Assembly (NCBI GenBank): GCA_025999215.1
Contig: AP024679.1
Span: 293,645 to 357,644, forward strand
Source of the DNA: Candidatus Dojkabacteria bacterium
GTDB lineage: Bacteria; Patescibacteriota; Dojkabacteria; J137
Length of the DNA: 64,000 nucleotides
Reading direction: 5' to 3'
The notes under the pieces are model-generated. The model did no database searches, had not been told where the DNA came from, and was given only the letters and a program-made list of their open reading frames with translations. How positions within the stretch are numbered: the stretch's first letter is position 1; every line of letters starts with the position of its first letter. The position numbers were made by a program, and so were the translations under genes. Below, in pieces: positions 14,336 through 51,257 of the stretch.

Positions 14336-14338
14336 AAT

Positions 14339-14950
14339 ATGAAGGCTTTATTGTTTGTTTTAAATATATTTTTTTTAATCTCAATAATTTTTGGATCTGT
14401 AGTTTATGCACAAGGTTATCCAGGACCTAATACTAATGATCCAAACTATAGTCGTATAGGGTCCGCTCCTGAAAATTGTAGTGACAACTACGTGGTAGAT
14501 TTTAGTTGTCAAAGAGCAAAAATTTTAGATCCTTCAGTTTTTTGTTATGAAAACAAATGCCCAGATGTTCCTTCTTATCAAGATGCTCAGCAAGGTAGCG
14601 ATGATACTTGGTTAAGTTTAGATGCTTTTGGGGCTAGATTAAATATTGATTCTGGAAAAGAGATTGCCGCACTAATTAATATTTCCATATCTACTTTTTT
14701 GGGAATTATATCTATTTATGCATTGGTTAGAGGTGTGTATGTTGCTGGCTTTAAAATAGCAGGTAATACAGAACAAGAAAAGCTTACAGAAGCAAGGAAT
14801 GAAATTGTGCAACTAGTTTTGGCGTTTGTAATTGCTTGGTCGGCAATTTTTGTATTGCAGTTTGTATTCTCTTTGCTTGGATTAGGTAGTATTAATAACT
14901 ATATTTTATTTGGAGATAACCAACAAGGAACTCAAATAGTTATAAATTAA
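14339..14950 (+). CDS. VirB2/TrbC-like pilin-family paralog 2 with Cys-rich ectodomain
   Basis: Signal peptide (VYA-QG), an ectodomain of about 100 aa with 6 Cys, then the TM-loop-TM module with the shared 'EQEK' loop signature (KIAGNTEQEKLTEARNEI). Confidence 0.45.
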   Translation: MKALLFVLNIFFLISIIFGSVVYAQGYPGPNTNDPNYSRIGSAPENCSDNYVVDFSCQRAKILDPSVFCYENKCPDVPSYQDAQQGSDDTWLSLDAFGARLNIDSGKEIAALINISISTFLGIISIYALVRGVYVAGFKIAGNTEQEKLTEARNEIVQLVLAFVIAWSAIFVLQFVFSLLGLGSINNYILFGDNQQGTQIVIN

Positions 14951-14953
14951 ATT

Positions 14954-15499
14954 ATGAAAACAAAAACTAAAATCTTATTGTTTTTAATTATGTTTTTTGT
15001 AATACCGCCATTAGTGAGCGCGCAGGATGGATCAGGCTCTTTGGAATTCAATACAGGTAAGGCTGGTGAAGGCTTAGACCCAATTACGATTTCTTTTTTC
15101 CCTCAAGTTACTCTTATTGATGCAGAGTATGCAAGCTTTTTAAGTTGGTTAAGTTTTATAGCTAACATAGCTATATTAGTTTTGGTGCTTTTTTGGCTTT
15201 ATAAAATTTTTTTTGCAGGGATAGAAGCTATGAGAGGTGGTGGTGAAGCTGAAAAATTGGTTGAATCTTGGAAAAAAGTTAGAGCGGTTTTGCTTGGAGT
15301 AACTATTTCTTTTTTGATACCAATAATACTTTCTATTGTAGGGACTTTTTTGGGTGTTGGTGCAATTTGGGAGTGGCCATTAGCTTTTAGAGAATGTAAA
15401 GATGATAGGTATGATTATTATTTTCAAGCTTTACAGGAGTGGAGTCAAACTACAAACGTTTCAGATCCTAAAGCTGAAGTTGATAGTATTTGTTTTTAA
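14954..15499 (+). CDS. VirB2/TrbC-like pilin-family paralog 3
   Basis: Signal peptide (VSA-QD) plus TM - IEAMRGGGEAEKLVESWKK - TM. Confidence 0.45.
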   Translation: MKTKTKILLFLIMFFVIPPLVSAQDGSGSLEFNTGKAGEGLDPITISFFPQVTLIDAEYASFLSWLSFIANIAILVLVLFWLYKIFFAGIEAMRGGGEAEKLVESWKKVRAVLLGVTISFLIPIILSIVGTFLGVGAIWEWPLAFRECKDDRYDYYFQALQEWSQTTNVSDPKAEVDSICF

Positions 15500-15507
15500 T
15501 AATTTAA

Positions 15508-15945
15508 ATGTATAGATTTTTTATTTTTGCAGCAATTATTTTATTGAGTTTTGGTTTTTTAAACATAGTTAAGGCTCAGGGCTTTTGTGATTTTTATCCA
15601 TGTGGTAATAATGATCCAAGTATTGATGACAGCACAGAAGATGATCTTTCAGTAACTTTTCGAACAGGTTTTCGATTAATAACATCGTTAATATTTACAG
15701 TTTTCATAGCATATGGTATATTTTTGATAATTAAGGCTACTTATATTATTATTAGAAGTGAAGGAGTTTCAGAAAAATACGAAAAAGGGTATAAGTTGAT
15801 AAAGGGGGTTTATGTTGGTGTAATTATGATATTTATAGGTTTGATAGGTTTATTGATTGTTGCTGTTTTTTTTGGTGGGGTAAGTATATTTAATGTTGAG
15901 CTAACTGAGCCAGAAGGGGTTGATACACCGTTATTTGAATTTTAG
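15508..15945 (+). CDS. VirB2/TrbC-like pilin-family paralog 4
   Basis: Signal peptide (VKA-QG), short Cys-containing ectodomain, then TM - IRSEGVSEKYEKGYK - TM. Confidence 0.45.
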   Translation: MYRFFIFAAIILLSFGFLNIVKAQGFCDFYPCGNNDPSIDDSTEDDLSVTFRTGFRLITSLIFTVFIAYGIFLIIKATYIIIRSEGVSEKYEKGYKLIKGVYVGVIMIFIGLIGLLIVAVFFGGVSIFNVELTEPEGVDTPLFEF

Positions 15946-15971
15946 ACTTTTATTATTTATTAGTTGTCAAA

Positions 15972-16512
15972 TTGAAAAAAATATCTAATTTTACATTAGG
16001 GGTATTTGTTTTTTTGATTATTGCGTTTTTTTTAGTAACTGTTAATGTTGATGCACAGGGTAGTTCCCAAGATCTTCCTGATGATACGAATGCTACAACT
16101 ACTAATGATGAAAGTTTGGTTTGTCAAGTACTTCCATTTTTAAAGAATATAGCATTTGTTAATAAGGCTATATATGAGGGTAGTGAATAAGGTGCAGAAA
16201 ATGCCGTTAACACCATAGTAGGCTTGGTTCAACTAGGAGGAACTTTGGTGTTTGTAGGTATAATAGGAATATCAATTTATGTGATCATAAAGGCGGCAAT
16301 AAAGTATATAAGAAGCGAAGGAGAAGGAGAAGGTGGTTGAAGCGCAAAAGGCAATAAAGCAGGTGTTTGCAGGTTTAGCGGCGTTATTTGTAGGGTTGGT
16401 AGGTTTAGTAATAATACTTGCATTAATAAATACTGATGGTACTTTGGGTGGTTCTACTGAGCAGAATAGTGATTTAATAAAACAGCTAGAACAATTAAAT
16501 TTAGGGGAGTAG
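15972..16512 (+). pseudogene. VirB2/TrbC-like pilin-family paralog 5, inactivated. This is the first, diverged unit of the 647-bp tandem repeat.
   Basis: In-frame TAA at 16188-16190 where the intact copies have AAA. A 2-nt deletion near 16320 (GAAGGAGAA-GGAGAAGG versus GAAGGAGAACAGGAGAAGG) shifts the frame into TGA. From 16191 onward the nucleotide sequence is near-identical to 16838-17159. Confidence 0.7.
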
Positions 16513-16572
16513 TTTGTTAATTTAGAATTTAGATATTTAAAAATAAATTTTTTATCGGATTTACAAAGAATT

Positions 16573-16602
16573 TTGACATTTTTTGAGCTGTTTGTGTATA
16601 AT
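16573..16602 (+). promoter_or_regulatory. Consensus sigma-70-type promoter inside the repeat unit
   Basis: TTGACA - 18 nt - TATAAT, about 35 nt upstream of the 16638 ATG. An identical copy sits at 17220-17249 upstream of 17285. Confidence 0.55.
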
Positions 16603-16637
16603 TAATTGAACAAATTTATTAATTAGTTTAATTTAAA

Positions 16638-17159
16638 ATGAAAAAAATTATTAACAAGATTCACTCAACACTCATTATTTTAATGTTTGTTTTTTTATTA
16701 CATCCACTTCTTTTTTCAGTCTTAGTTGTTCGGGCTAGCGGTCAAAGTGATTTTTCTAATATTATATGTCAAGTACTTCCTTTTTTGAACAATATAGTAT
16801 TCGTTAAGGATGCTATATGTAAGGGTAATGAAAAAGGTGCAGAAAATGCCGTTAATACCATAGTAGGCTTGGTTCAACTAGGAGGAACTTTGGTGTTTGT
16901 AGGTATAATAGGAATATCAATTTATGTGATCATAAAGGCGGCAATAAAGTATATAAGAAGCGAAGGAGAACAGGAGAAGGTGGTTGAAGCGCAAAAGGCA
17001 ATAAAGCAGGTGTTTGCAGGTTTGGCGGCGTTATTTGTAGGGTTGGTAGGTTTAGTAATAATACTTGCATTAATAAATACTGATGGTACTTTGGGTGGTT
17101 CTACTGAGCAGAATAGTGATTTAATAAAACAGCTAGAACAATTAAATTTAGGGGAGTAG
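16638..17159 (+). CDS. VirB2/TrbC-like pilin-family paralog 6 (repeat copy A)
   Basis: Signal peptide (VRA-SG), Cys-containing ectodomain, then TM - IRSEGEQEKVVEAQKAIKQ - TM. 173 aa. Confidence 0.5.
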   Translation: MKKIINKIHSTLIILMFVFLLHPLLFSVLVVRASGQSDFSNIICQVLPFLNNIVFVKDAICKGNEKGAENAVNTIVGLVQLGGTLVFVGIIGISIYVIIKAAIKYIRSEGEQEKVVEAQKAIKQVFAGLAALFVGLVGLVIILALINTDGTLGGSTEQNSDLIKQLEQLNLGE

Positions 17160-17284
17160 TTTGTTAATTTAGAATTTAGATATTTAAAAATAAATTTTTT
17201 ATCGGATTTACAAAGAATTTTGACATTTTTTGAGCTGTTTGTGTATAATTAATTGAACAAATTTATTAATTAGTTTAATTTAAA

Positions 17285-17806
17285 ATGAAAAAAATTATTA
17301 ACAAGATTCACTCAACACTCATTATTTTAATGTTTGTTTTTTTATTACATCCACTTCTTTTTTCAGTCTTAGTTGTTCGGGCTAGCGGTCAAAGTGATTT
17401 TTCTAATATTATATGTCAAGTACTTCCTTTTTTGAACAATATAGTATTCGTTAAGGATGCTATATGTAAGGGTAATGAAAAAGGTGCAGAAAATGCCGTT
17501 AATACCATAGTAGGCTTGGTTCAACTAGGAGGAACTTTGGTGTTTGTAGGTATAATAGGAATATCAATTTATGTGATCATAAAGGCGGCAATAAAGTATA
17601 TAAGAAGCGAAGGAGAACAGGAGAAGGTGGTTGAAGCGCAAAAGGCAATAAAGCAGGTGTTTGCAGGTTTAGCGGCGTTATTTGTAGGGTTGGTAGGTTT
17701 AGTAATAATACTTGCATTAATAAATACTGATGGTACTTTGGGTGGTTCTACTGAACAGAATGATCAATTACAAAGATTAAGGGATTTAGATTTGGGAGAA
17801 CAATAA
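17285..17806 (+). CDS. VirB2/TrbC-like pilin-family paralog 7 (repeat copy B; identical to copy A except the C-terminal 15 aa)
   Basis: Nucleotide-identical to 16638-17115. C-terminus is NDQLQRLRDLDLGEQ versus NSDLIKQLEQLNLGE in copy A. Confidence 0.5.
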   Translation: MKKIINKIHSTLIILMFVFLLHPLLFSVLVVRASGQSDFSNIICQVLPFLNNIVFVKDAICKGNEKGAENAVNTIVGLVQLGGTLVFVGIIGISIYVIIKAAIKYIRSEGEQEKVVEAQKAIKQVFAGLAALFVGLVGLVIILALINTDGTLGGSTEQNDQLQRLRDLDLGEQ

Positions 17807-18010
17807 AGTTAGTTTTAGTAGGGAAGATAATTTTAAAATAGCTAAATTAATTTATTTCTTTTTTATTAGCCTAATTGGGTGTTGGGGATTTTTTGTTTAA
17901 ATTAGATGTAATTTTATTATTTAATTCTAGATTCAATCAGTGTTCTATCGTCTGAAACAATTACTTCAAATTTACTTGATAAAAGTTTCATTTCTTGGGA
18001 TACTTTTGGT

Positions 18011-18470
18011 ATGAAAAATTTACTTGTAGTGTTGCTTGTTTTTTTTGGGCTTGCTTTCTTTACACTCAGTGTAAATGCTCAAATGCAAGACATTCCCTTT
18101 TCTGCAAATGATTCATCGTGCAGTAGTTATCAGTGCTTCAATGGTGAGGATCCTGTTTATAATGAAAGTAAAAAGTTATGTATGTGTGGAGATGAGCCTG
18201 CATACTTCAAGCCACCCACACTTCAGCAAGTTGAGATATGGTTTGTTAGGATAGTTTATATCGTTTGGGCTTTTGTTGGGTCACTTTCTTTTGTAATGCT
18301 AGTTTATTTGGGATATCAATATATGCTCAAAGGAGGGAACAAGTGACCAAGCCTTGGTTGATTTAAGAAGGAGGATTATAAACTATATAATTGGGGTGGT
18401 ATTAGTGTTTTTGGCTGTTCCCGATATTAACGACTTTCTTTCGGTTTTTAAATATAAATGGAGATGTTAA
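18011..18470 (+). pseudogene. VirB2/TrbC-like pilin-family paralog 8 requiring a +1 frameshift (probably pseudogene)
   Basis: Signal peptide (VNA-QM), Cys-rich ectodomain and TM1, then ...LKGGNK-TGA at 18344. The +1 frame continues DQALVDLRRRIINYIIGVVLVFLAVPDI..., which recreates the charged loop plus TM2 seen in all paralogs. Confidence 0.55.
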
Positions 18471-18977
18471 GTGTTATGAGTTTGCAGAGTCTGGGGAATT
18501 GACATTTAGATTTTTCTTTCCAGAGCTTATGTACTGATCCTTTGAATGTTTTAGTTTCGGATCCTTGTACGTTTGGTGATGATGCTAGAGGGTTTGCTTG
18601 TGCTATAGAAGGAGCAAAGGTATCTGATTGCTCTGCAAGAAATTACAGAAGTATACAATATTTAGAGCTTATGTTTGTAGACAAGGTGTATCGAATTCTA
18701 TCGAGTTTAATGATAGTAACTAGTTTAACATCGATTTGAAACTAATAAGTTTGTTGTAGATGCACATACTGATTTTGTTATTTAATGTAAGTGTGAGATT
18801 AATATATTAGATTTTAAAGTTGTAAGATTATAAGAGATAGTATGTCTGAACGAATTTATAACTACAAACGATTTCAATTCTATTCCTGATTCGTTACAAG
18901 TAGATATTGCGGGAGAAGAAAATTCTTTTGATGTAATTACCAAAATAGAGTCTTCTGGTATAACAGTAACTAAAAAT

Positions 18978-19970
18978 GTGAAGAAATATATTTTGAAAAA
19001 GATAATTGATCGTCAAAATCAGTTACTAGATGAAAGAAAACCCTTAGATGGCGAATTTAATAAACTTAAAGATGAAAAGCAAGCTCTTGAAGGAAAGGAA
19101 CTTTTTGTATTATATTTACAAACTTTAAAAAATGATTTAGAAGATGTATTAAAAAAATATGAGATTAATGAAATTGACAAAACAAAAATTGAAAATTTAA
19201 AGCGTGAAAAACAGCATATGAGAACCAAATATCTTTTAGGTAAAGAAGATAATTTTTTTGCACAAGATAAAAATGAAGATAATGATGAAAAAAAGGATGA
19301 GCCATATTATTTTGTGGTTGGTTTAATGGTTTTGCAATCACTATTTGTTGTGTTTGCTTTATTGTATAAATTTAATTTGACGTTACTTTTAATTGGCGTG
19401 GTTTCATTTTTGATACAAATTTTATTTGCGTCACTTGCAAATAAAGTTGGATATTATGAAAATAATCTGTTATTTGAGTTGATTAATTATACTCATCCTG
19501 AAATAGATAAGCAGGAAGTGTTTGATAATTTTGATTATGAGGAGAGTATGCTTGTGAAGTTTGCAATGTATGAAACGATTAAGAATGAAATTAATAAGAT
19601 AGATGAATATAGTCAAGAATTTTTGAATGGGCAGACCTTAGATGAGTTTTCAAACAAAATAAAGCAAATAGTTGATAAAATGAGAGAAATTAATGAAAAG
19701 CTTATCGAAATTGAAAAAATTTCAATTAGTTCTGAAAAATTGAAAAAACTTAAACAAGAGCAATCTAGTTTGTCTGGCACAGGTTTGTTTGGGGATGTAT
19801 CATCTTCTGAAGGTGTTTTGAGTGATGCCGATAAAATCTCAATAGGAAGATTTTTGGTTGTTAATCATCAAAATGCTCTATCGGTTGAATTTGCCAGAGA
19901 GCAATTTAATATTTTACAAGAAGTCATTAGTGATAAAATACTTTATAGGACACAAGTTACACAAAACTAA
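18978..19970 (+). CDS. Hypothetical coiled-coil membrane protein (two central TM helices)
   Basis: K/E-rich helical N-region, TM pair (YYFVVGLMVLQSLFVVFALLY / LLLIGVVSFLIQILFASL), acidic C-region. Confidence 0.45.
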   Translation: MKKYILKKIIDRQNQLLDERKPLDGEFNKLKDEKQALEGKELFVLYLQTLKNDLEDVLKKYEINEIDKTKIENLKREKQHMRTKYLLGKEDNFFAQDKNEDNDEKKDEPYYFVVGLMVLQSLFVVFALLYKFNLTLLLIGVVSFLIQILFASLANKVGYYENNLLFELINYTHPEIDKQEVFDNFDYEESMLVKFAMYETIKNEINKIDEYSQEFLNGQTLDEFSNKIKQIVDKMREINEKLIEIEKISISSEKLKKLKQEQSSLSGTGLFGDVSSSEGVLSDADKISIGRFLVVNHQNALSVEFAREQFNILQEVISDKILYRTQVTQN

Positions 19971-20010
19971 TTTAGTCAAGATAGCTAACATAGCTAATCT
20001 AGTTATATTT

Positions 20011-21711
20011 ATGTTTGTGTTTGTTAATCCAGCATGGGCACGAAGTGTTGCTGATATCCAAAATGAAATAAATCAACAAGAACAAGAGTTAGAAAATGTA
20101 AAAGAAACATTGGAAAATGCGTTAAAGCAGCTCCAAGATACTGAGAGTAAATTGAATAATCAACAATCAGAATTAGAAAAATTAAATTCTGAAATAAGTT
20201 TAATTGATCAGCAAATAAACATTAATAATGTAGAGTTAGAGATTTTAAAAAAAGAAATAGAGGTTAAGCAACTTGAAAAAATCAAAAGAGAAAAAATTTT
20301 AGAAAAAACTCTATCTAAAAATTACATGGATTGGAGAGCTAAGGATACTCAAATAGAAAAATTTTTATTAAAAAATAACATTGATAATTCAGAGAAACAT
20401 TGGCAATATGATTCATTTTTTGTGAGTATTCAACAACAAGGTATAGTATCCCTTTTGGAGACATTGCAAGATCTCAAAAAATTATCTTCTGAGTATGATA
20501 AAAAAATAGAAGAGTTACAAGCTCAAAACAGTGAACTTGAAGCAAAAAAACAAAAATTACAAGAAGAGCTTTTGGCATTACAAAATGCGATTTATGCTAC
20601 AAACAACAACATAGTATCTTTACAAAGCCAGCAACAAAATATCGAAAGTAAAATTAAAAATCTTCTTGAGGAACAAAAACAAGCTTTTGAGTACGAACGA
20701 AAAATCTTAGAACAAGATCCTGGTGGAGGTGGTGGAAATATTAACGAGGGTGAGTGGTTTTTTTATGGAAGTGGAAGAGATTTGTATCAAGGACATGGTG
20801 TAGGTATGAGTCAATGGGGTGCTCACGGTATGGCATTAAATGGTTTTACATATGATCAAATACTTAGTTTTTATTATGAAAATTCATATGTGCAGGGCGG
20901 TTTTTCAAAGCAAATTAATGTTGATGGATATGGAAGCATGGATATTGAAACTTATGTATCAGGCTTAGGTGAAGTTCCTAGCAAAGCTTGTGGGAATCCT
21001 GATCAAGTTCAATCTAATCCGGAAAAATATGTGATAGATGATCCAAACAATAGTTGGGATTGCTGGCCTGAAGAAGCCATTAAAGCTCAGGTAGTAGCTG
21101 CTAGAACCTATGCATGGTGGTATACCAGTGTGAGAGGTAGCATTTGCACTACAGCATCATGTCAGGTTTACAGTGGAGGTAATGGAAAAGCCTGGGCAGC
21201 ACAAGAAACTCAAGGAGAGCTAGTTCTTTATAATGGTTCTCCTATTGAAGCCGTATATTCTTCAGATAACAATCAAGGTTATGGTACGGCAGACAACGAT
21301 ACTATTTGGCAAAACATTTATGGAGACGGCACACCTTATCCATATTTAAGATCAAAAAATGATAATGATTATGCAACACCTACTCAATGGACTAATTGGA
21401 CTTATCAAACCTCTGGTTTTTTGAGTCAAGATATTAACGCTATGCTTAATTTTGTAGTCAATAATTCTAATTATTCTATAGGCGTTAAAAATGCTATTAG
21501 TAATATAATTAACGAAGTTGGAGAAATTGAAAGTTTAAGTTTTGTTAGAGATAATTCTTTAAGAGTTAAAAAAGTTATCTTGAAAGGAACCAATGGTGTA
21601 GAAAAAAGTATTGGTGGATGGTGGTTTAAAAATATTTGGAATACTTGGGCTTATGAGACTGGTAGAGGAGATTATATATATTCTCAGACGTTCTTTTTAT
21701 CAAGTAAATAA
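20011..21711 (+). CDS. SpoIID/LytB-domain (peptidoglycan-remodelling) protein with long N-terminal coiled coil
   Basis: GHGVGMSQWGAHGMALNG matches the SpoIID/LytB core. It is preceded by about 200 aa of Q/E/L-rich heptads and a Gly5 linker. Track ORF starts at 19858, overlapping the upstream gene by 113 nt. The ATG at 20011 (MFVFVNPAWA) is more plausible, but the true start is uncertain. Confidence 0.6.
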   Translation: MFVFVNPAWARSVADIQNEINQQEQELENVKETLENALKQLQDTESKLNNQQSELEKLNSEISLIDQQININNVELEILKKEIEVKQLEKIKREKILEKTLSKNYMDWRAKDTQIEKFLLKNNIDNSEKHWQYDSFFVSIQQQGIVSLLETLQDLKKLSSEYDKKIEELQAQNSELEAKKQKLQEELLALQNAIYATNNNIVSLQSQQQNIESKIKNLLEEQKQAFEYERKILEQDPGGGGGNINEGEWFFYGSGRDLYQGHGVGMSQWGAHGMALNGFTYDQILSFYYENSYVQGGFSKQINVDGYGSMDIETYVSGLGEVPSKACGNPDQVQSNPEKYVIDDPNNSWDCWPEEAIKAQVVAARTYAWWYTSVRGSICTTASCQVYSGGNGKAWAAQETQGELVLYNGSPIEAVYSSDNNQGYGTADNDTIWQNIYGDGTPYPYLRSKNDNDYATPTQWTNWTYQTSGFLSQDINAMLNFVVNNSNYSIGVKNAISNIINEVGEIESLSFVRDNSLRVKKVILKGTNGVEKSIGGWWFKNIWNTWAYETGRGDYIYSQTFFLSSK

Positions 21712-21749
21712 TTTACTTATACTTCTTTTTGTGCGATAATTTTCATTAA

Positions 21750-22547
21750 ATGAATAATAATTACAATAGTTCACCTAATTATTCTAATCCCAATCCTAAT
21801 ATGGTTCCTAATAGTGAGGGTATAGTTCCAGCTCCCATGCCGGTGCCAAATTATGGTTTTGAACCAAATCAACCGGCAGTCCCTATGGATCACTATGAAT
21901 ATCAAAAAAGATTGAGGGATATTAATTTACAAAGAGAAATTAGCGAAATAGAAAGAATTATACCAAGAAAGAAAAACTCCTCTTTTTCAAGTCTTGAGTT
22001 TAGACCCAAGCATGTTCATTTTGCAACTCAAAATCCCCAGGAAAAGGTTTATCTTTTAATAAGAAGGCATTGGATTACAAATTTAGGTTGGTTTTTGAGA
22101 TATACATTTTTGGCTTTTGTACCTCCTACTATATTTTTTATACTTAAATTTTTCGAGATAGAAACTGATCTGGTGACTCCGAGAGGGATTTTTTTATTTT
22201 TATTAGGTTTTTATTCTTTGATTATTACTAATTTTTTCTCACATTTTTTTGATTGGTATTTTGATCCATATATTTTAACTAACGAAAGAATAATAGGATA
22301 TGATTTTAAGCCTTTTACTTCTTTTTCTGTAACTGAAGCAACACTTGATAACATTGAGGATGTTCAAGAAAAATCTATTGGCCCCATAGCGAGTCTATTT
22401 CATTATGGAAATATCAGACTTTTGACTGCGTCTGAAAAAGGTGAGATTGTTTTTGAAGCTGTACCAAACCCTACGGAAGTTAGAGATATCATAGCTGATG
22501 TGACTAAGATATACAAAAAGTATAATTTAAATCAACACAATGATTGA
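21750..22547 (+). CDS. Membrane protein with bacterial PH (bPH_2/YdbS-like) domain and N/P-rich N-terminus
   Basis: N/P-rich low-complexity N-terminus, TM hairpin, then the bPH2-like pattern ...IRRHWITNLGWF...ILTNERIIGYDF. Confidence 0.4.
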   Translation: MNNNYNSSPNYSNPNPNMVPNSEGIVPAPMPVPNYGFEPNQPAVPMDHYEYQKRLRDINLQREISEIERIIPRKKNSSFSSLEFRPKHVHFATQNPQEKVYLLIRRHWITNLGWFLRYTFLAFVPPTIFFILKFFEIETDLVTPRGIFLFLLGFYSLIITNFFSHFFDWYFDPYILTNERIIGYDFKPFTSFSVTEATLDNIEDVQEKSIGPIASLFHYGNIRLLTASEKGEIVFEAVPNPTEVRDIIADVTKIYKKYNLNQHND

Positions 22548-22752
22548 GCAAAGTTTAATAATAATAGACGCAATTAAAATAGCTGCTATTGTTTTTGCAG
22601 TTGGGCATTTTTTAGCGGGATTACTTTTATTTCGCGATATGATAAGAATAAATAAATCATTAAAAACCAAAAATTCTTCTTTTTTCAATTTGTTAAGTTT
22701 TATTTACTTACTGTTTCTCCTTTTTGTGTTAATCATATTTATTTTAGCTTAA
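22540..22752 (+). CDS. Small hydrophobic protein (hypothetical)
   Basis: 70 aa, two TM segments. Start overlaps the upstream stop (ATGATTGA). Confidence 0.3.
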   Translation: MIEQSLIIIDAIKIAAIVFAVGHFLAGLLLFRDMIRINKSLKTKNSSFFNLLSFIYLLFLLFVLIIFILA

Positions 22753-22814
22753 TTGGTAGTATTTTACCTTTTGATAGCATCTGATATACTGTTGTAAAGT
22801 TAGGTTTTTAAGTT

Positions 22815-25181
22815 ATGGATATTAAGGCTGAGTTTATTGTAGGTAAACAAACGCCCAGACAGTGGTCTGGGGTTTATGGTTATGTTCCAGAAGAAAAAAG
22901 TGTTTTAGAAACCCGAGGAAGTTTGTGTGTGGTGATATCTCTTAAATCTGAAAATGATTCGGTTGTACTAGAGCATGTAGCTTCTTTTTCTCTAGATGAA
23001 TTACAAAGATATATCTATGAAGAAGATTTTAATAATTCCTATCTTGAGCATCTTGAAGAAGCTATGTTTGCTATGAAAAATAGGCTTTTAACTGTTGTTG
23101 ATAAAGAAGAGAGTTTAAAAGATGGTGTTGACTTTGAGATGGCCGTGGGAATTTATTTTAACGATTATGCTTATTTTGCGAGTGTTGGTGAGGCAGGCAT
23201 TTATTTGTTGAGAAATGAAAATTTGGTTTGTGTTTCTGATGCTTTGATTGATTCAAGTATGCAAGGCTTTTTTAGAACAGGAAGCTTGATGATTGAACCG
23301 CTAGATACGTTTTTGTTATGCACTTCAAAATTTGTAAATGAAGGTGAAGAAGTTGTTAGAAAAGTGTTAAAAGATAAAGATTTAGAAAAACCAACAAGTG
23401 ATTTTATACACAAACCAGGTATTGCGGGCATGCTTGTTGCTGATATTGAGGTAATGAAAAATTTTGCTTCAGAATCTGAGGATGAATCAAAAGAAAGAGT
23501 AGACGTGATTGATGCAAAAGAGATTGAGTTAGAAAAAGCAGAAGAGCACAGTAAAGATCAATTGTTAAAAACTTTTGAGAATACAGATAGTGATGAAATC
23601 AAAGATGAATCAGATGTAAATGAAAAAATTAATCAAACTATAGAAAATGATGACTTGGATGATGGGGTTGAAAATAAAAAAGTTTCAGATTTAAATCAAT
23701 TGACAACATTTCAAGAATATTTTGAGAATTTAAGAAATAAATTAAAGGGTCTGTTTGGTAAAATTTTGCCAGGTTTAAAAAATTTAAACTCGATTTTTAA
23801 AAGTAAAGTTGTTAAGCATTTTAAAGATAATAAAAAAACTTACGCTCAATTTTTGAAAAGCATATATACAAATTTAATTACATTTGGCTCAAAAGTGGCG
23901 GATTTGTTTAAAAGAGAGGTTTTGGGAGTCGGTTATCAAGATAGAAGAAATGCTTTTGATAGAGCAAAAAGAATAAGGAGAAATAGAAGAATATTTGCGG
24001 GTGCTTTGGTAATACTAATTATTTTTACATACTTTTTCATATCAAGAACAATTCAAAATAACAAAATTCAAGCGGAAAGACGCGAAATTGAAGCCAGGTA
24101 TCAAGTTTTACAATCTGAGGTTGAGTCATTGAAATCAGAGGCTTTGGCAACCAAAAATCAAGATGTTGATAAAAAAGTATTGGTTTTGAACGAAATAGAT
24201 AAATTAACTAAAGAAGTTGAAGATGCAACACCAGAAGATTATATGAGTGATGCTTTTAGTAGCTTAAATGAAGCTTTGAGTGAAGTGCGTGATGATTTAC
24301 TTTTGATTGATAGAATCAGAGAGCCTCAAGTGATAGCAGATTTTGGCGCAGTATTTGAGGATGTTGATTTAAGAGACATTGCTTACTCTAATGGTGGCAT
24401 TTTTGTAAGTGATTATTTAAGAAATGTTGTTTATAAACTTTCAACTAATTTGTCGTCTGAACCAGTAGAGCATATTTCAAATTTGGTTAAACCTGAGTTT
24501 TTAGTTACAAGTAGCAGTGGAGATTTAATTGTTTATGATAATGATGAAATAAGTGGTATAGCTAGGTTCTCTCCAAATGAAAGTAATTCTTTAAGTAGGT
24601 TTAGTGGCTTGTTAGCAAGGAGAGATATTGGAAGTGTTGCCGAGGTTGGCTTGTATCTCAACACAGATGGACTTTATGAGTTAAAAACATCCAATGAACA
24701 AATTTATAAAAGAGAAAAGTCAGGTGATACCTATCTTGGTGGCGGAGCATTGTTTGTTAGTTCAAATCCTCCAAATTGGAAAAATGATCCAGAATTATCA
24801 AGAGCAATAGATATAGCTGTTCCGTTTGAGATTTATGTTTTGATTGATGGAGGTGGGATTAGAAGATATCTTGGAGGAGGTGATAACACACTTGTGTATG
24901 AGAGTTTTGTGAATTTATTGAGATCTGATTTTGAGAGTTTTAAAAATGCAAGTAGCATTGATGTGAGTAGCCAATTTATGGCAGTGTCGGATCCACAAAA
25001 TAGAAGAGTTATGATTTTTCAAATTTCTGATACTCCTGAAAAATTTTTAACCTTGGTTACACAATTTGTTTATGATGGAACAGAGGATTATTTTAATAAT
25101 TTGCAAGAGGTTGTAATCAATGAAATAGACAGGCAAGTTTATGTGCTTGATGGTGAAAAGGTAATAAGGTTAGATTTTTAA
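22815..25181 (+). CDS. Large hypothetical membrane protein: N-terminal globular domain, acidic linker, one TM (~residue 395), coiled coil, beta-rich C-domain
   Basis: 788-aa [26 protein letters not shown]. No catalytic motif recognised. Confidence 0.45.
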
Positions 25182-25183
25182 TA

Positions 25184-25637
25184 ATGAAAGTACTTTCAAC
25201 TAACAAACAAGCAAAACGAAATTATGAGTTTATAGAAAAGTTTGAAGCAGGAATAGTTTTAGAAGGCTGGGAGGTAAAATCAATCAAAGCAGGGTAGTGT
25301 ATCTATAGATGGTTCTTATGCTTATGTCAAAGAAAATGAAGTATTTGTTAAGAAGGTGAAAGTATATCCGTTAATGTCCGCGGGTAAAGTTCCTGAGGCT
25401 CAAACGGAACGCGATAGGAAGTTGCTACTTAAGAAAAATGAAATCAACAAAATTAAAACTTTACTGAAAAATATAGGTTATACTTTAGTTGTCAGTCAGT
25501 TGTTCCTTGCTAATTCGGGTTTTATCAAGGTTGAAGTGGTGGTTTCTAAAGGGCTCAAAAAATATGAAAAAAGAGAACGGAAAAAGGAGAAAGATTTAAA
25601 AAGAAAATTAGAAGCTGATAGAAAATATTATGGATAA
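25184..25637 (+). pseudogene. smpB: SsrA-binding protein SmpB, split by a 1-nt frameshift
   Basis: 25184-25297 encodes [40 protein letters not shown]. The +1 frame continues [66 protein letters not shown]... (track ORF 25356-25637). Both halves align to SmpB. The break is at a GGG run near 25292-25295. Confidence 0.75.
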
Positions 25638-25857
25638 TAACATACAAATCACAAAAGAATTGTTAGCTAAATACAGTTTTACCTTTTATGCATACGACGA
25701 AAAAGGAGAACCGCTGTTTACTGCTCCCAATGGGCAAATAGTCGGGTTTAATCTAGTCAGAAATTTTATAATTGAGCAAGAAAACAAGTTGAAACAAAGT
25801 CAACTGGTAGGAAGTGGCGGTGGTATTGAAAGCATGCCCAAGTCTGCCTACAGTTAA
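25630..25857 (+). CDS. Hypothetical small protein
   Basis: 75-aa ORF overlapping the smpB stop (ATGGATAA). No motif. Confidence 0.3.
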   Translation: MDNNIQITKELLAKYSFTFYAYDEKGEPLFTAPNGQIVGFNLVRNFIIEQENKLKQSQLVGSGGGIESMPKSAYS

Positions 25858-26019
25858 TCAAAACATTGATCAAAATACCAAAGAGGAAGGTCTGATTCAA
25901 ATTTTGAAAATAACTTAGAAAGAGCATCGGAAAGACCAGAAAAAGAGGAAAATCAAGAAAATGAAAATGATAAAAATCAAAATCAAAATCAAACGAAAAT
26001 TTTTACTGTAACACCCAAA

Positions 26020-26217
26020 ATGGCAGCGGCCCCAAAAAGTGTACCTTTTGGTGATGGGTTTACACCTTCAAAGTTTGATCCAAGCTCATTGCAAGATACA
26101 AAAAGGTTTGTGCAACAAAATAAGAAGCAAGGGAATAGTAACAGCAATAAATGGTTGGCGGTTTTGTTTGAAAAATTTGTGAAAGAATACGAGGATCAAT
26201 TAAACAATAATAAATAA
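26020..26217 (+). CDS. Hypothetical small basic protein
   Basis: 65-aa ORF immediately upstream of the large ATPase. Confidence 0.3.
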   Translation: MAAAPKSVPFGDGFTPSKFDPSSLQDTKRFVQQNKKQGNSNSNKWLAVLFEKFVKEYEDQLNNNK

Positions 26218-26218
26218 G

Positions 26219-28669
26219 TTGTATATGTTAGTTAAGATGGATATAATCAACACTGCTATTATAATTTTATATTTTATAATAGGAATACTTCTTGGAAGTA
26301 TTGTAGCTTACTTTTTGTTAAAATACGCGCTTAAGAAAACACATGAAGCAGTTTTGAGAAGAAAACATAGAAATTTGGTTTTCTTTGAAGTTAAATTACC
26401 TGCAAACAACGAGTTTGAGATAAAAGTGGCAGAGCAAATGTTTGCTGGTTTGATGAGTATTTCACCAAAAATTAAAGGAATAAAAAAATATTTTAATGCT
26501 AAGGCTTTCGTAAGTTTTGAGGTGGTAGCATTTAAAGATAATATTAAGTTTTATGTAGCTTGTCCAAAAAGAATAGCGGGAATAGTCGATAAGCAAATTA
26601 ATGGAACTTATACATCTGCTGATATTAAGCTGGTTAAAGAATATAATTTATTTCCTGACGATTCAAAAGTGGCTTACGCGGCTTTGAAACTAGATAAGCA
26701 TCATAGAATACCCATCAGAACTTATGAGGATTTGCCTGTAGATACATTGTCAACTTTGCTAGATGCGTTTAGTAAAATTCAGTTTAATGAAGCAGCGGCA
26801 TTTCAAGTTGTAATTACTCCAGCTGGTTCTGAATGGCGTAATCAATCTAAAAAATATATTAAAAAGCTTAGAGAGGTACCAGAAGGAGAAGATGGAAAAA
26901 CTAAGAAAAAACCTGAGCTTGATGATGATACTATTCAACTTATTGACCAAAAAGCATCGAAACCGGGTTTTTATGTAGATGTTAGGTTGGTTGCAGTTAG
27001 TGAAGATAAAGAGTCAGCCGAAATGCATTTGAGTAATATGATGAGTTCAATAGATCACTATGTAAAAGAAGGTGGAAACAGATTTAAGAAATTAGAAAAG
27101 AAAAAAATTAAAAATATAGTTGATGATTTCATCTATAGAATACCTAGAGAAACTATGATATTAAACACGGAAGAACTAGCTACTCTTTATCACTTCCCAA
27201 ACAAAAATATAACTACTCCTCATGTAAATTGGCTTTTATCTAAAAAAGCGCCAGCTCCGGATTTTGTAGAGGCTGAATTTAAAGAAGATTATATGTATAT
27301 TGGGAGAAATACTTTTAGGGGAAAAGAACGGGAGATTTTTATCAAACCAGAGGATAGGCTTAGGCATATGTACATAATCGGTCAAACTGGTACCGGAAAA
27401 TCAGGTTTTATGGTAGGTATGATGACAAGAGATATTAAGCTTGGACATGGTTGTGGTTTTATTGACCCTCATGGAAGTGATGCAGAAAAAATACTTCAAC
27501 AGGTTCCTCCTGATCGTGCTGATGATGTAGTATTTTTTGATCCATCAGATATGGAAAGGCCATTCGGTTTGAACATGCTTGAATATGAATCAGAAGGGCA
27601 GAAAGCAAAAGCTTTAGATGAATTATTGTCTATTTTTGATACTTTGTTTGATTTGAGGCAAACAGGAGGACCAATATTTTATCAATATTTTCGTTATGGA
27701 GTATTACTTTTATTATCAGATCCAGACTCAGGTGCGACAGTGTTAGAAGTTCCAAAGATCTTATCTGATGATGCTTATAGAAAGTACAAGCTATCTAGGT
27801 GTCCAGATAAAGAGATTGTTGCATTTTGGGAAAAACAAGCTGAAGCAGCGGGAGGAGAAGCCTCTCTAAAAAACTTGGTTCCTTATATTACTTCCAAATT
27901 ATCTCCATTTGTTACCAACCCTTATGTGCGACCAATTGTTGCACAACAAAAATCAACACTAGATTTTAAAGATATTATGGATAGTAAAAAAATTTTGATA
28001 GCCAAATTATCAAAAGGAAAGATTGGAGATTACAATGCTTATCTTTTAGGAATGATTTTAATTGGAAAATTGCTTGTTACTGCGTTGAGTAGAGAAGAAA
28101 AATCGGAAAGTGAGAGAGTTCCTTTTTACTTGTACATTGATGAGTTTCAAAATTTTTTGACGGAATCTATTCAAACAATTTTGTCGGAAGCTAGAAAGTA
28201 TAAATTGTCTCTCACTATTGCACACCAGTACATTAGTCAGTTGGTTAAAAATAACGATACTAGAATTAGAGATTCAATTTTTGGTAATGTTGGTAATAAG
28301 GCTGTTTTTAGAGTTGGTACCGAAGATGCAAAATTTTTGGAACATGAGTTTGAAGGTGTGTTTGATAAAAATGATTTAATTAAGGTTGAAAATTTCACTT
28401 TTTATTTGAAGATGTTATCTGGTGGACAACCCACACCACCTTTTTCAGTAAGATCTTTTTATGGTGACTCAAAATACGATATGATAGGTAAACCTAATCC
28501 TGAGTTAGCTCAGATAATCAAAGAAATATCGAGGCTAAAATACGGAAAGCCTAGAGAGCTGGTAGAGAAAGAAATAGAAATGAGGACAGAAGAGGCTCAT
28601 AAAAAGGGTGAAGAAATAATTAAGAAAAACAAATCTTCTTCAGGCTTCGGCGGTTTCGGTGGATTTTGA
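26219..28669 (+). CDS. VirD4/TrwB/TraD-like type IV coupling-protein-family ATPase with N-terminal TM anchor and 370-aa N-extension
   Basis: Walker A YIIGQTGTGKSGF. FIDPHGSD (compare TrwB IVDPNGD). Walker B LYIDEFQNF. Motif LTIAHQYISQL (compare T4CP/FtsK-HerA QSxSQL). One TM at residues 8-30. C-terminus is GFGGFGGF. Confidence 0.55.
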   Translation: MYMLVKMDIINTAIIILYFIIGILLGSIVAYFLLKYALKKTHEAVLRRKHRNLVFFEVKLPANNEFEIKVAEQMFAGLMSISPKIKGIKKYFNAKAFVSFEVVAFKDNIKFYVACPKRIAGIVDKQINGTYTSADIKLVKEYNLFPDDSKVAYAALKLDKHHRIPIRTYEDLPVDTLSTLLDAFSKIQFNEAAAFQVVITPAGSEWRNQSKKYIKKLREVPEGEDGKTKKKPELDDDTIQLIDQKASKPGFYVDVRLVAVSEDKESAEMHLSNMMSSIDHYVKEGGNRFKKLEKKKIKNIVDDFIYRIPRETMILNTEELATLYHFPNKNITTPHVNWLLSKKAPAPDFVEAEFKEDYMYIGRNTFRGKEREIFIKPEDRLRHMYIIGQTGTGKSGFMVGMMTRDIKLGHGCGFIDPHGSDAEKILQQVPPDRADDVVFFDPSDMERPFGLNMLEYESEGQKAKALDELLSIFDTLFDLRQTGGPIFYQYFRYGVLLLLSDPDSGATVLEVPKILSDDAYRKYKLSRCPDKEIVAFWEKQAEAAGGEASLKNLVPYITSKLSPFVTNPYVRPIVAQQKSTLDFKDIMDSKKILIAKLSKGKIGDYNAYLLGMILIGKLLVTALSREEKSESERVPFYLYIDEFQNFLTESIQTILSEARKYKLSLTIAHQYISQLVKNNDTRIRDSIFGNVGNKAVFRVGTEDAKFLEHEFEGVFDKNDLIKVENFTFYLKMLSGGQPTPPFSVRSFYGDSKYDMIGKPNPELAQIIKEISRLKYGKPRELVEKEIEMRTEEAHKKGEEIIKKNKSSSGFGGFGGF

Positions 28670-28716: not shown

Positions 28717-28793
28717 GCTCCTGTAGCTCAGTTGGTTAGAGCACGGTTCTTATAAAGCCGGGGTCAGTGGTTCGAGTCCACTCAGGAGTACCA
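28717..28793 (+). tRNA. tRNA-Ile (anticodon UAU), CCA encoded
   Basis: Cloverleaf: acceptor GCUCCUG/CAGGAGU; anticodon stem CGGUU/AGCCG with loop CUUAUAA (UAU); T-arm AGUGG-UUCGAGU-CCACU; 3' ACCA. Confidence 0.75.
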
Positions 28794-28796
28794 AAC

Positions 28797-29663
28797 CTAC
28801 ACTTCATAAATCTTATCTTTTCCTGAAGGTTTGTATTTCTTAGAAAGGAGTGATAAATATTTTTGAGTTGTGCTTTCTGATTTATGACCTACAATTTGAG
28901 CGAGGTAACTAGTAGAAACGCCTTGAGATAGTTGATGAACAATAAAGGTATTTCTGATATCGTTTACGCAGACGTTTTTCAAATTAGCTTTAGCTATAGC
29001 TCTATCAATTGAATTTCTAATATTTCTAATTTGAATAGGTTGACCAGTTCTGGTAAAAAATAAAGGATGGTTATTATCTTTATCGGCACAATGTTTTTCA
29101 AGATATGATTTTAATACGTAAAATAGCTTATCGTTGATCGGTATAACCCTCTTTTCATTTGATCCGTAAGGTTCTATAGTTATTTCTTTTTTAGACATAT
29201 CCACATCTTTAATTTTGAGGTTTGCAAGTTCAGCTATCCTGATTCCTGTTTGAAGCAATGTTTCAATTATTACAAATAATCTTTCATTTTGCCTACTAAC
29301 TTCTTTGAGTGCTAGATATTCTGTTGGTTTTAAAATTCTTTTTTTCTTGTTAATGTATTTAGGATGTTCCACTTCTAATGCAGGATTGTATTTTATTTTT
29401 TTTGTTGTTATTAAAAAATTAAAAAATGTTCTATAACTATTAAGTTTACGAGAAATTGTTTTAGGGGAAAGTCCTTTCTGTTCTTTTAAAAAAATCAAAG
29501 CATTTTTTATATCTTTGGTTTCAAATTGTGGTAAATCTTTTTGGACGTTTGTTTCTGCAAGTTGTTCGATATCTTTTTTATATGCAATAATGGTATTGGG
29601 AGACATTTTTTGTTTTTCTAAGTAGCTTGTGAAGCTTGCGACTAGTTCGTTAGTTGTATTCAT
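28797..29663 (-). CDS. Tyrosine recombinase (XerC/XerD/phage-integrase family)
   Basis: 288 aa with the C-terminal catalytic ...VGHKSESTTQKYLSL (H-x-x-R...Y) signature and the N-terminal core-binding motif (SPNTIIAYKKDIEQL). Its stop is 3 nt from the tRNA-Ile(UAU) 3' end. Confidence 0.75.
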   Translation of the reverse strand: MNTTNELVASFTSYLEKQKMSPNTIIAYKKDIEQLAETNVQKDLPQFETKDIKNALIFLKEQKGLSPKTISRKLNSYRTFFNFLITTKKIKYNPALEVEHPKYINKKKRILKPTEYLALKEVSRQNERLFVIIETLLQTGIRIAELANLKIKDVDMSKKEITIEPYGSNEKRVIPINDKLFYVLKSYLEKHCADKDNNHPLFFTRTGQPIQIRNIRNSIDRAIAKANLKNVCVNDIRNTFIVHQLSQGVSTSYLAQIVGHKSESTTQKYLSLLSKKYKPSGKDKIYEV

Positions 29664-29726
29664 GATAGTATGTTATAGGGTAACTGCGGTGATATTAACA
29701 TACTAAAATAAAGTTATCAATTAAAT

Positions 29727-30143
29727 ATGAGAAAAAAAATCTTTTTTTTGAAATTAAAACTTAATCAAATTTTTAAAAACATTGAACTAGATGGCATCGC
29801 TCTAACTTTTATATTGTTTTTATTTTCAATAATTTTATTCTTACAAATTATAAGTGTTGTGAATCGAGCCAAGTATAACTACGATGTTTATGTTTATGAA
29901 AAAAACACTTTGAGTGAGTTAAAGTCAAAATTAGAAGAGACAATTGATGAGCTAGATTATGTAAGTTCGGAGGAGTATCAAACTTTATTGTTGAGAGATG
30001 CGTATTCATTTGCGTCGGATAGACAGATATTGTTTAGAGAAAATAATGTTTCAAGTGTTGCAACTATCAATGAAAAAGAGTATTTGAAAATTGATGATAC
30101 CAAGGAATTCTATACAGTATGGTGGAAAGATTTGATTTTTTAA
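29727..30143 (+). CDS. FtsB/DivIC-like septum-formation initiator (putative)
   Basis: N-terminal TM, short coiled coil, C-terminal ...LLLRDAYSFASDRQILFRE resembling the FtsB/DivIC conserved tail. Confidence 0.4.
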   Translation: MRKKIFFLKLKLNQIFKNIELDGIALTFILFLFSIILFLQIISVVNRAKYNYDVYVYEKNTLSELKSKLEETIDELDYVSSEEYQTLLLRDAYSFASDRQILFRENNVSSVATINEKEYLKIDDTKEFYTVWWKDLIF

Positions 30144-30170: not shown

Positions 30171-30245
30171 CGCGGGGTAGAGCAGTGGCAGCTCGTCGGG
30201 CTCATAACCCGAAGGTCGTTGGTTCGAATCCAACCCCCGCAACCA
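30171..30245 (+). tRNA. Initiator tRNA-fMet (CAU), CCA encoded
   Basis: Near-identical to E. coli tRNA-fMet: CGCGGGG...GCUCGUCGGGCUCAUAACCCGAAGGUCG...CCCCCGCAACCA, including the C1xA72 mismatch and the three G-C pairs in the anticodon stem. Confidence 0.9.
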
Positions 30246-30290
30246 AGTGCCCCCACATGTTTGTGGGGGCACTTGGTTTATTCTTTCACT
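30243..30290 (+). terminator. Rho-independent terminator overlapping the tRNA-fMet CCA end
   Basis: CCAAGUGCCCCCA-CAUGUU-UGGGGGCACUUGG perfect 13-bp stem followed by a UUUAUUCUUUCACUUUUU tract. Confidence 0.75.
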
Positions 30291-51195: not shown

Positions 51196-51257
51196 AATAA
51201 AATTGAGTTGATTTTTTTGTTGTGGTAAATTATTGGGTAATGATAGAATGAAATTAT

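Follow-up and report, generated by a model that had tools for sequence, protein, structure and literature searches.

Among uncultured bacteria a considerable fraction are Patescibacteria, and the one species of the group that can be manipulated genetically cannot live on its host without a type IV secretion system (T4SS) and the accompanying pilin array. Two questions follow from this: by what route the pilus passes the wall, and what the ubiquitous 'orphan' type IV coupling protein (T4CP) genes do. A 64,000-nucleotide stretch of Candidatus Dojkabacteria KatS3mg085 (a metagenome-assembled genome), hereafter the window, carries a pilin array followed, at positions 18978-28669, by genes for a wall enzyme, several membrane proteins and a T4CP-like ATPase, and the question raised by this locus is whether these genes form one machine. 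A reading made from the sequence alone had proposed that they plausibly did, as an apparently undescribed module for secretion, DNA transfer or contact. The open reading frames (ORFs) that it described (18978-19970, 19858-21711, 21750-22547, 22540-22752, 22815-25181 and 26219-28669) and their common strand were recovered, but the dedicated single module was not, since smpB lies inside it. The stretch is best explained as three juxtaposed chromosomal units and not as a single operon-encoded machine: unit A (~18.9-25.2 kb), with genes for a two-transmembrane (TM) coiled-coil protein, a SpoIID protein with a long coiled coil, a bPH-like protein, a DUF5657 protein and a 788-aa protein; unit B, the housekeeping gene smpB; and unit C, an 816-aa ATPase with its upstream partner gene. 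As for their function, the reading given the best chance here, about an even one, is that unit A opens the wall for the adjoining VirB2-type pilus and that the unit C ATPase works in trans with the T4SS. The window is chromosomal DNA with an rRNA operon, tmRNA, tRNAs, groES/EL, ftsH and polA, and its G+C content is flat (0.30-0.33 over 1-38 kb, rRNA genes excepted), so that an ordinary chromosome is indicated and no island.

The first part of the answer comes from the SpoIID protein, encoded on the + strand at 19969-21711. It appears as a secreted or anchored peptidoglycan enzyme composed of a signal peptide, a ~200-aa EnvC-like coiled coil and a SpoIID/LytB lytic-transglycosylase-type domain, and its start most likely lies near 19969, rather than at 19858, because a signal peptide is found there, just past the stop of the upstream ORF. 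The SpoIID/LytB assignment made earlier was confirmed by TIGR02669 (1e-34; 120.8 bits, cut-off 83.3), by Pfam SpoIID PF08486 (6e-10, 40.1 bits against a cut-off of 23) and by profile matches at 4e-7 to the solved SpoIID structures 5txu and 5i1t. The coiled-coil profile matched EnvC (8i6o_E, 3e-7; 8tzk_E, 5e-7; 6tpi_A and 8hd0_E, both 1e-4), each match spanning ~170-190 of the 212 profile positions, and coiled-coil composition bias may contribute to these values. Moreover, the segment order of the SpoIID domain appears permuted with respect to the solved structures, as if by a circular permutation: whereas 5txu has its GHGVGMSQWGA-type segment at the C-terminal side, the window protein has it at the N-terminal side, ahead of the E[MV]P...KAQ..AAR[TS]Y segment. 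In the sequences inspected by eye E[MV]P stood upstream of KAQ..AAR[TS]Y, and the other family members inspected presented the same order. The domain is predicted from its family to be of the glycan-strand-cleaving type. The family of SpoIID proteins with this coiled coil comprises 2374 proteins at E<=1e-20, and its named members belong to Dojkabacteria/WS6, Levybacteria and Woesebacteria.

The second part comes from the company that this gene keeps. The order SpoIID-coiled coil, bPH-like, DUF5657 and 788-aa-like protein recurs in Dojkabacteria and Microgenomatia, being kept in loci of the Dojkabacteria and Levybacteria types and in many metagenome loci. A metagenome scan seeded on the bPH-like protein (p265), by means of one peptide pattern, returned 80 loci without taxonomy, of which 41 were 6 kb or longer; most of these 41 retained the four-gene core together with smpB. 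An upstream flank of 6 kb or more was available in 26 loci, and 20 of them presented three to seven PF18895 pilin genes directly beside the SpoIID gene, these pilin matches having been checked against Pfam. Seventeen of the 20 arrays were placed head-to-head on the other strand and three were co-directional, as in the window, which indicates that the adjacency survived rearrangement. When the loci were de-duplicated by the identity of the bPH-like protein, the pilin array was found in 13 of 15 lineages at 70% and in 6 of 8 at 50%. Such frequent adjacency, independent of orientation, argues that unit A is functionally tied to the pilins. The ATPase adjoined unit A in only 6 of the 26 loci with enough flank, being absent in the other 20; where both flanks reached 6 kb or more, which was so in 20 loci, it was absent in 14; the unit A loci without pilins mostly carried the ATPase in that position instead.

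In the window itself, the array of about eight VirB2-like T4SS pilin genes (13976-18649, + strand; PF18895 T4SS_pilin at 2.2e-6 and 6e-3) encodes proteins in which a signal peptide and a two-TM hairpin are visible, and two of its genes are disrupted. Two loci of close relatives, L081 and L083 (L-numbers are labels of the compared loci in relatives), carry orthologous arrays. The pilin genes 16638-17159 and 17285-17806 are nearly identical, representing a tandem duplication, and each is preceded by a perfect TTGACA-18 nt-TATAAT arrangement (16573-16602 and 17220-17249). Immediately 5' of the array lies the gene, split in the window, of a ClpB-like ATPase that has a double AAA+ module and, at its N-terminus, two TM helices (11398-13975), and which was observed at the same place in Dojkabacteria-type loci (L083:34-2613, L084, L085 and L088), apart from the canonical ClpB/ClpC encoded at 56839-59382. 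In head-to-head loci, the pilin arrays are followed by genes for large proteins of 700-1250 aa without Pfam match (L098:1613-5362, L100:2538-6107, L153:2065-4836 and L138:1-2142, all on the - strand), of which that of L100 bears a signal peptide and those of L153 and L138 a hydrophobic segment at the N-terminus. Adhesins or effectors are possible identities for these proteins.

The remaining proteins of unit A are membrane proteins. Directly 3' of the SpoIID gene, in every case, lies the gene for the bPH-like protein (21750-22547, + strand, 265 aa), with a disordered N-terminus, two TM helices (119-159) and a C-terminal bacterial-PH-like domain. The bPH assignment is tentative but recurs in the family: the bPH_2 match of the window protein is sub-threshold (E 0.028, 15.1 bits, under the cut-off of 22), and bPH_2 was matched by 9 of 10 family members (best 3e-4) and bPH_3 by 5 of 10 (best 4e-5), all below the gathering score, and a PDB search with the single sequence gave nothing useful. 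The start of the next gene, which overlaps the stop of the bPH-like gene, opens a 70-aa two-TM protein (22540-22752, + strand) assigned to DUF5657 (PF18901, 24.5 bits, cut-off 25); the same family was matched by 14 of its 15 positional orthologues, with a best value of 1.5e-17. The 788-aa protein (22815-25181, + strand) is bitopic, as had been proposed, with one TM helix at ~392-410. A cytoplasmic degenerate PP2C-like domain and an acidic linker precede this helix, and a coiled coil and an extracellular NHL beta-propeller follow it. The profile of the C-terminal domain matched Pizza/PknD NHL structures at 1e-12 to 4e-10, with up to six matched stretches; the propeller resembles the sensor domain of PknD, and an orthologue gave a faint PF01436 match. 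The N-domain profile matched PP2C phosphatases weakly (7e-4 to 3e-3), which suggests the fold, and since an alignment of 18 N-domain sequences revealed zero invariant columns, with the DGxGG, GDSR and DG positions of metal binding and catalysis unconserved, this domain is probably a pseudo-phosphatase. A word-index homologue search for the 788-aa protein returned three matches only, and its relatives were reached by means of synteny and local hidden Markov models (HMMs), which demonstrated homology (hmmsearch 4e-20) with a gene of 588-645 aa that takes its place in the cluster in Levybacteria-type and metagenome loci.

Upstream of SpoIID, the two-TM coiled-coil membrane protein (18855-19970, + strand) was recovered as described for its listed ORF (18978-19970, 330 aa), with hydrophobic helices at 111-129 and 136-154, and no Pfam or NCBIfam family matched it. 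This ORF is probably too short at its 5' end: L081 and L083 hold an orthologue of 377-382 aa at the same position, with 29% identity, and the alignment of the 377-aa orthologue begins at 18855. The protein is confined to Dojkabacteria-type loci, the other loci being without a match. None of the proteins encoded between the pilins and the ATPase resembled a T4SS channel part.

What, then, is the ATPase? The gene at 26219-28669 (+ strand) encodes a membrane-anchored P-loop ATPase of 816 aa, identical (100%) to the hypothetical protein KatS3mg085_322, for which the NCBI call is 814 aa with an ATG at 26225. A TM helix at ~14-32 is followed by a domain with the DUF8128/VirB4 N-domain fold (~53-320), by a VirB4/T4CP-type motor with a putative helical insertion (~359-745) and by C-terminal helices. 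The motifs GQTGTGKS, FIDPHG, YIDEFQNF and HQYISQL, and the N-terminal TM helix, were read in the translation as had been reported. The T4CP identity derived from them was upheld in part: three Pfam families scored above gathering (TraG-D_C 34.8 against 22, T4SS-DNA_transf 28.3 against 20.1 and TrwB_AAD_bind 24.1 against 20.5 bits), but the NCBIfam T4CP models were all far under their cut-offs and the N-terminal domain is of the VirB4 type. In the PDB, the family profile matched DotL (3e-5) and TrwB (2e-4), and the single sequence gave no match. The VirB4 model TIGR00929 reached E 2e-3 and 16.4 bits (cut-off 643) over 85 residues only, and CagE_TrbE_VirB had no match in the protein.

An AlphaFold model built from 57 homologues (predicted local distance difference test, pLDDT, 88.7) gave comparison values of 27.0 with 4ag5, the VirB4 C-domain, 25.5 with TrwB, 25.3 with DptH, 23.2 with HerA, 21.9 with DotL, 21.7 with Cag-beta and 16.2 with FtsK. 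Since this comparison ranks the VirB4 C-domain first, the ATPase is not placed with the FtsK/SpoIIIE or HerA types, an assignment that the sequence-only reading had named among the things that would refute it. Residues 45-350 modelled alone reached a pLDDT of 91.8 and a predicted template modelling score of 0.90, and the 14 best PDB matches of this model in Foldseek were all TrwK chains from R388 T4SS structures. In both domains, the closest structural relatives are dedicated T4SS ATPases, and the protein is predicted to have the architecture of VirB4 (N-domain and motor, with its own membrane helix) together with sequence motifs nearest those of coupling proteins. Relatives occur in at least 599 loci (in a scan of one genome per species), with 37-45% identity over ~780 residues in Levy-, Woese-, Davies-, Curtiss- and Roizmanbacteria, Paceibacteria, ABY1 groups and WWE3. 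The N-terminal domain alone returned 1726 representative clusters, in which the proteins are 800-860 aa long and the domain almost always covers residues ~40-400; in precomputed annotation it goes under DUF8128, a name of which no mention was found in the literature searched.

The gene neighbourhoods of the ATPase bear directly on whether 18978-28669, the pilins and the Clp-like ATPase could together make up a new, self-contained apparatus that spans the envelope for secretion or DNA transfer and uses the 816-aa protein for coupling. In close Dojkabacteria relatives, whose ATPases are 70-76% identical, the co-linear same-strand order Clp-like ATPase, pilins, coiled-coil protein, SpoIID, bPH, DUF5657, 788-aa protein, smpB, partner and ATPase is fully kept, and this conservation, together with the T4CP Pfam families and the pilin array immediately upstream, speaks for such a unit. 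In most Patescibacteria, however, the parts are separate. Some Levybacteria present the order ATPase, SpoIID, bPH, DUF5657, a ~590-aa homologue of the 788-aa protein and smpB, so that the ATPase lies directly upstream of unit A there and downstream in Dojkabacteria; beyond Dojkabacteria, the 20 of 26 unit A loci without the ATPase are mirrored by ATPase loci of which most lack unit A and pilins. Clustering of the ORFs within ±10 kb of the ATPase (80-81 loci) revealed class-specific housekeeping neighbours, such as a Xer recombinase and DivIC/FtsB in Microgenomatia and Dojkabacteria, DnaX in ABY1, and NDK, MetAP and adenylate kinase in Paceibacteria, and the sole constant neighbour was a small same-strand partner ORF; no VirB3-, VirB6-, VirB8- or TrsD-like family recurred there (80 loci). 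Among the ORFs scanned across the window there was likewise no profile match for a VirB3/6/8 channel component, for canonical VirB4, VirB6 or VirB11, the absence of which had been stated from the outset, or for a relaxase, which leaves the proposed DNA transfer unsupported. With smpB inside the stretch and, on the ATPase, a VirB4-type N-domain that coupling proteins lack, a single self-contained apparatus is quite improbable.

The ATPase gene is directly followed by tRNA-Ile(TAT) (28717-28793) and a Phage_integrase-family gene (28797-29663, - strand), and a T4CP-like gene ahead of a tRNA and a tyrosine recombinase could be taken for the remnant of an integrated conjugative element. Against this, the G+C content is flat, none of the scanned ORFs matched a relaxase, the ATPase family shows vertical conservation throughout the phylum, and the arrangement of ATPase, Xer-type recombinase on the - strand and DivIC/FtsB recurs in 15-18 of 81 chromosomal loci from different classes, as expected for XerC/D-type housekeeping recombinases. 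This neighbourhood, which takes in 28717-30143 in the window, was noted in L002, L008, L009 and L026-L054. A remnant of this kind is very unlikely and was rejected because of the flat G+C and the recurrent chromosomal neighbourhood.

Between the 788-aa gene and the ATPase, the sequence-only reading had seen small ORFs, and these turned out to be pieces of two interrupted genes. The first is smpB, involved in trans-translation (25184-25637, + strand), which starts three bases beyond the end of the 788-aa gene; a 93-aa ORF is its 3' part (PF01668, 6e-19), and a tblastn comparison with intact orthologues joined two frames across a +1 frameshift in an A-run at ~25287-25294. This gene adjoins the unit A cluster, on either strand, in ~36 of 41 loci. 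The second is the ATPase partner gene (25627-26217, + strand), interrupted by TAA and TGA, of which the 75-aa and 65-aa ORFs are two pieces; it encodes ~187 aa in relatives and aligns in one frame with the 187-aa ORF of L001 (33% identity over 192 aa), and its stop is placed 1-7 nt ahead of the ATPase start. Intact orthologues of both genes were found in L001, L081 and L083. In most of 76 loci, a same-strand ORF of 130-190 aa abuts the ATPase gene, only a few bases separating the two. These partner ORFs are fast-evolving and, as judged by eye, often share a C-terminal W-L-A...K/R helix motif; an iterated HMM intended to unite their families did not extend past one family. In Parcubacteria GW2011_GWA2_49_9 (Paceibacteria), partner and ATPase are fused (KKW11044.1, L057:9560-12310) in a protein of 916 aa without TM helix, the N-terminal extension of which bears the motif of the separate partner ORFs in related genomes.

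At least six genes of the window are split by frameshifts or in-frame stops: the Lon-like gene (3743-4824), the Clp-like gene (11398-13975), two pilin genes (16092-16494 and 18011-18649), smpB and the partner gene. Since the orthologues of the split genes in L081 and L083 are intact and one shift falls within an A-run, this points to assembly error or genome decay.

How the units might act can be outlined from homology, predicted structure and gene order, on which every functional statement made here is based. The SpoIID-type enzyme, held on its EnvC-like stalk, would perform a local and controlled cleavage of glycan strands for the passage of a VirB2-type pilus or channel, a VirB1-like job for which most Patescibacteria show no recognisable VirB1. 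The VirB1-like role had been suggested before, and it is plausible given that the SpoIID gene set is conserved beside pilin arrays in two orientations; the enzyme domain is what was identified, and the role is what we infer from it. The membrane proteins of unit A would anchor or gate the enzyme via its coiled coil, as FtsEX gates EnvC-type hydrolases, so that the switch would lie with a membrane partner, either the bPH/DUF5657/NHL set or FtsEX itself; no ftsE or ftsX match was found among the scanned window ORFs or the inspected loci. The 788-aa protein would be sensor-like, its NHL propeller facing outwards and its PP2C-like domain, which looks inactive, lying in the cytoplasm, and smpB would be present through synteny only. 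The ATPase may form a membrane ring that moves pilin or substrate at the expense of ATP, like VirB4 or VirD4, in trans with T4SS parts encoded elsewhere.

Several observations weigh against this outline. The pilin-adjacency figure may be lineage-biased, as one peptide pattern yielded all the loci behind it and these are without taxonomy. There are, moreover, unit A loci that lack pilins: the Levybacteria variant L166:3145-13908 comprises SpoIID-coiled coil, a 201-aa protein, DUF5657 and a 463-aa LytR_C protein that replaces the NHL protein, adjoined by two class A penicillin-binding proteins (PBPs) and several toxin-antitoxin pairs; in L008 and L165 it lies beside SbcCD-like genes, which in a WS6 locus stand upstream; and in L164, from Woesebacteria, SpoIID stands alone. 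The EnvC-like coiled coil points by its likeness to control of the FtsEX type, that is, to division, and the almost constant position of unit A beside smpB makes a general cell-wall or division role a live alternative. As for the ATPase, it has housekeeping genes on all sides (Xer, DivIC, DnaX, NDK, MetAP, RNR), keeps ~40% identity across classes, far above the usual conservation of T4SS parts, is present in a genome scored VirB4-negative (L040), lacks VirB3, VirB6, VirB8 or TrsD neighbours and, of the 44 loci centred on it that extend over 15 kb or more, is accompanied by a pilin array in just two. In S. epibionticum, the T4CP homologue is reported to be non-essential and the T4SS essential, from which it was proposed that the T4CP may have been exapted (PMC12102498). 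The structures are predictions, and several window genes are disrupted.

Most of these points can be gathered into one alternative: unit A would be a cluster for cell-wall growth or division that combines FtsEX/EnvC-style regulation with SpoIID chemistry and membrane regulators, the DUF8128 ATPase would be a core patescibacterial translocase unrelated to the pilus or the T4SS, and the proximities would be inherited from the gene order of small genomes that seldom rearrange. The EnvC-like coiled coil, the pilin-less variants beside class A PBPs and LytR_C proteins, the constant smpB neighbourhood on either strand and the flanking of the ATPase by Xer, DivIC/FtsB, DnaX, NDK, MetAP, RNR and FtsH in different classes all fit it, and so do the strong conservation of the ATPase, near-universal if T4CP homologues in 2918 of 3035 genomes are taken as its measure (PMC12102498), and the reported dispensability of the T4CP homologue where the T4SS is essential. 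In fact, gene contexts, high conservation, the reported non-essentiality and pilin-less variants are explained at least as well in this way. Pure inheritance, however, accounts less easily for the pilin arrays that adjoin unit A, in either orientation, in 13 of the 15 de-duplicated lineages, and the nearest structural relatives of the ATPase in both domains are T4SS-dedicated; Saccharibacteria, furthermore, keep an annotated ftsK, so that a substitute for FtsK is not obviously needed. The alternative is thus a serious one, though it is held here to be doubtful rather than probable. Even if it were true, an EnvC-like stalk on a permuted SpoIID domain would be a new arrangement.

With wall opening for the pilus and a T4SS-linked ATPase as the preferred reading, it can be asked what is new in it. 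The system as a whole cannot be called undescribed, as patescibacterial T4SSs, pilin arrays and T4CP homologues distant from virB4 were published between 2023 and 2025 (PMC10633639, PMC12102498, PMC12857230). Wang et al. (2023) demonstrated that T4SS and pilin array are both essential in a Saccharibacterium, with the coupling protein and relaxase unrecognisable in the cluster (PMC10633639). Quinonero-Coronel et al. (2025) surveyed 3035 genomes and reported 5713 T4CP homologues in 2918 of them (~96%), 148 near virB4; the pilin arrays that they describe hold 2-11 divergent genes, and VirB1 homologues were few. Most VirB2-bearing Patescibacteria were without VirB1, and it was suggested that other glycosidases may substitute (PMC12102498). 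Pilins were near virB4 in 1135 of 1948 assemblies, so that separation of the two is common (PMC12102498). Their table holds about one 't4cp1' per genome, far from virB4, beside a separate canonical VirB4 and TrsD (PMC12102498), and the DUF8128 ATPase family probably corresponds to this set, given a 110-position profile, the pattern of about one per genome and the TraG-D_C match.

A term search found no mention of SpoIID in the main texts of PMC10633639 and PMC12102498, nor, in the main text of the latter, of bPH, NHL, ClpB, AAA or a pilin-array-associated membrane unfoldase or Clp-like ATPase, and it likewise met with nothing on a VirB4-like N-domain in the 'T4CP' homologue. Two elements are apparently new: the linkage of pilin array and SpoIID cluster and, on the modelled structure, the VirB4-like build of the 'T4CP' family. 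The SpoIID-type cluster beside pilin arrays could thereby supply, and regulate, the VirB1-like activity that is missing, and is a candidate for it. Similarly, the VirB4-like build shifts the candidate job of the T4CP-annotated ATPase, from substrate coupling alone to pilin extraction and pilus assembly besides it, and bears on the divergence of VirB4 and coupling proteins. A bolder proposal, rather unlikely at present, is that the DUF8128 ATPases are a third and so far unrecognised VirB4/VirD4 branch, nearly universal in Patescibacteria, with the two domains of VirB4, motifs like those of coupling proteins, a built-in anchor and, in all cases, a small fast-evolving partner; they could even be a living intermediate between VirB4 and coupling proteins. 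In this proposal they would be forming with the SpoIID cluster an apparatus for pilus building or host contact that acts apart from, or upstream of, virB4-trsD.

Elsewhere in the window, a promoter and terminator scan gave a site count no higher than in shuffled sequence. The sole strong terminator-like site between 13 and 30.5 kb is a perfect 17-bp G+C-rich hairpin with a T-rich tail at 30241-30278, directly after tRNA-Met. Just past the rRNA operon, two very large ORFs occupy 43468-55325, one of 2575 aa with a receiver-like N-terminus and PEGA, the other of 1355 aa with DUF2341 and fn3 repeats, and both probably encode surface proteins.

Compared with known systems, the ATPase shares features with two families. 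With VirB4 (TrwK of R388, 7o42/8rtd; 4ag5) it shares a length of ~800 aa, membrane attachment and the predicted N-domain and RecA-like motor; it differs by giving no VirB4 family profile match, by carrying its own TM helix instead of relying on a separate VirB3, and by a gene not placed alongside VirB3, VirB6, VirB8 or TrsD. Patescibacteria have their canonical VirB4 besides, as a distinct protein (PF19044/PF12846) that is paired with TrsD. With coupling proteins (TrwB, VirD4, TraD/TraG, DotL) it has in common the N-terminal anchor, the Walker A/B motor, perhaps a helical insertion in it, the T4CP Pfam families and a gene that is often encoded apart from those of the channel. Unlike them, it presents one TM helix instead of the usual two, has no relaxase or oriT context and bears, between anchor and motor, a ~270-residue VirB4-type domain that coupling proteins are without.

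In relation to the published Patescibacteria T4SS, which is centred on virB4 with TrsD, PrgI/VirB3 and VirB6, the scan of the window revealed none of these near the pilins or elsewhere; the phylum, the PF18895 pilin arrays, the chromosomal location, the absence of a relaxase, the T4CP homologue apart from virB4 and the lack of a recognisable VirB1 in most genomes are shared. The SpoIID protein resembles the FtsEX-EnvC/PcsB/RipC hydrolases in its long coiled-coil hairpin ahead of a wall-hydrolase-type domain, and differs from them in that this domain is SpoIID-type, not LytM, CHAP or NlpC, and has no adjoining ftsEX. With SpoIID of the sporulation DMP machine it shares the SpoIID/LytB catalytic-domain family and the E[MV]P...KAQ..AAR[TS]Y segment, and it departs from that protein in its apparently permuted motif order and in having no SpoIIP or SpoIIM partners. 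What sets the cluster apart from FtsEX-regulated hydrolases and sporulation SpoIID alike is its usual neighbour, which is a pilin array.

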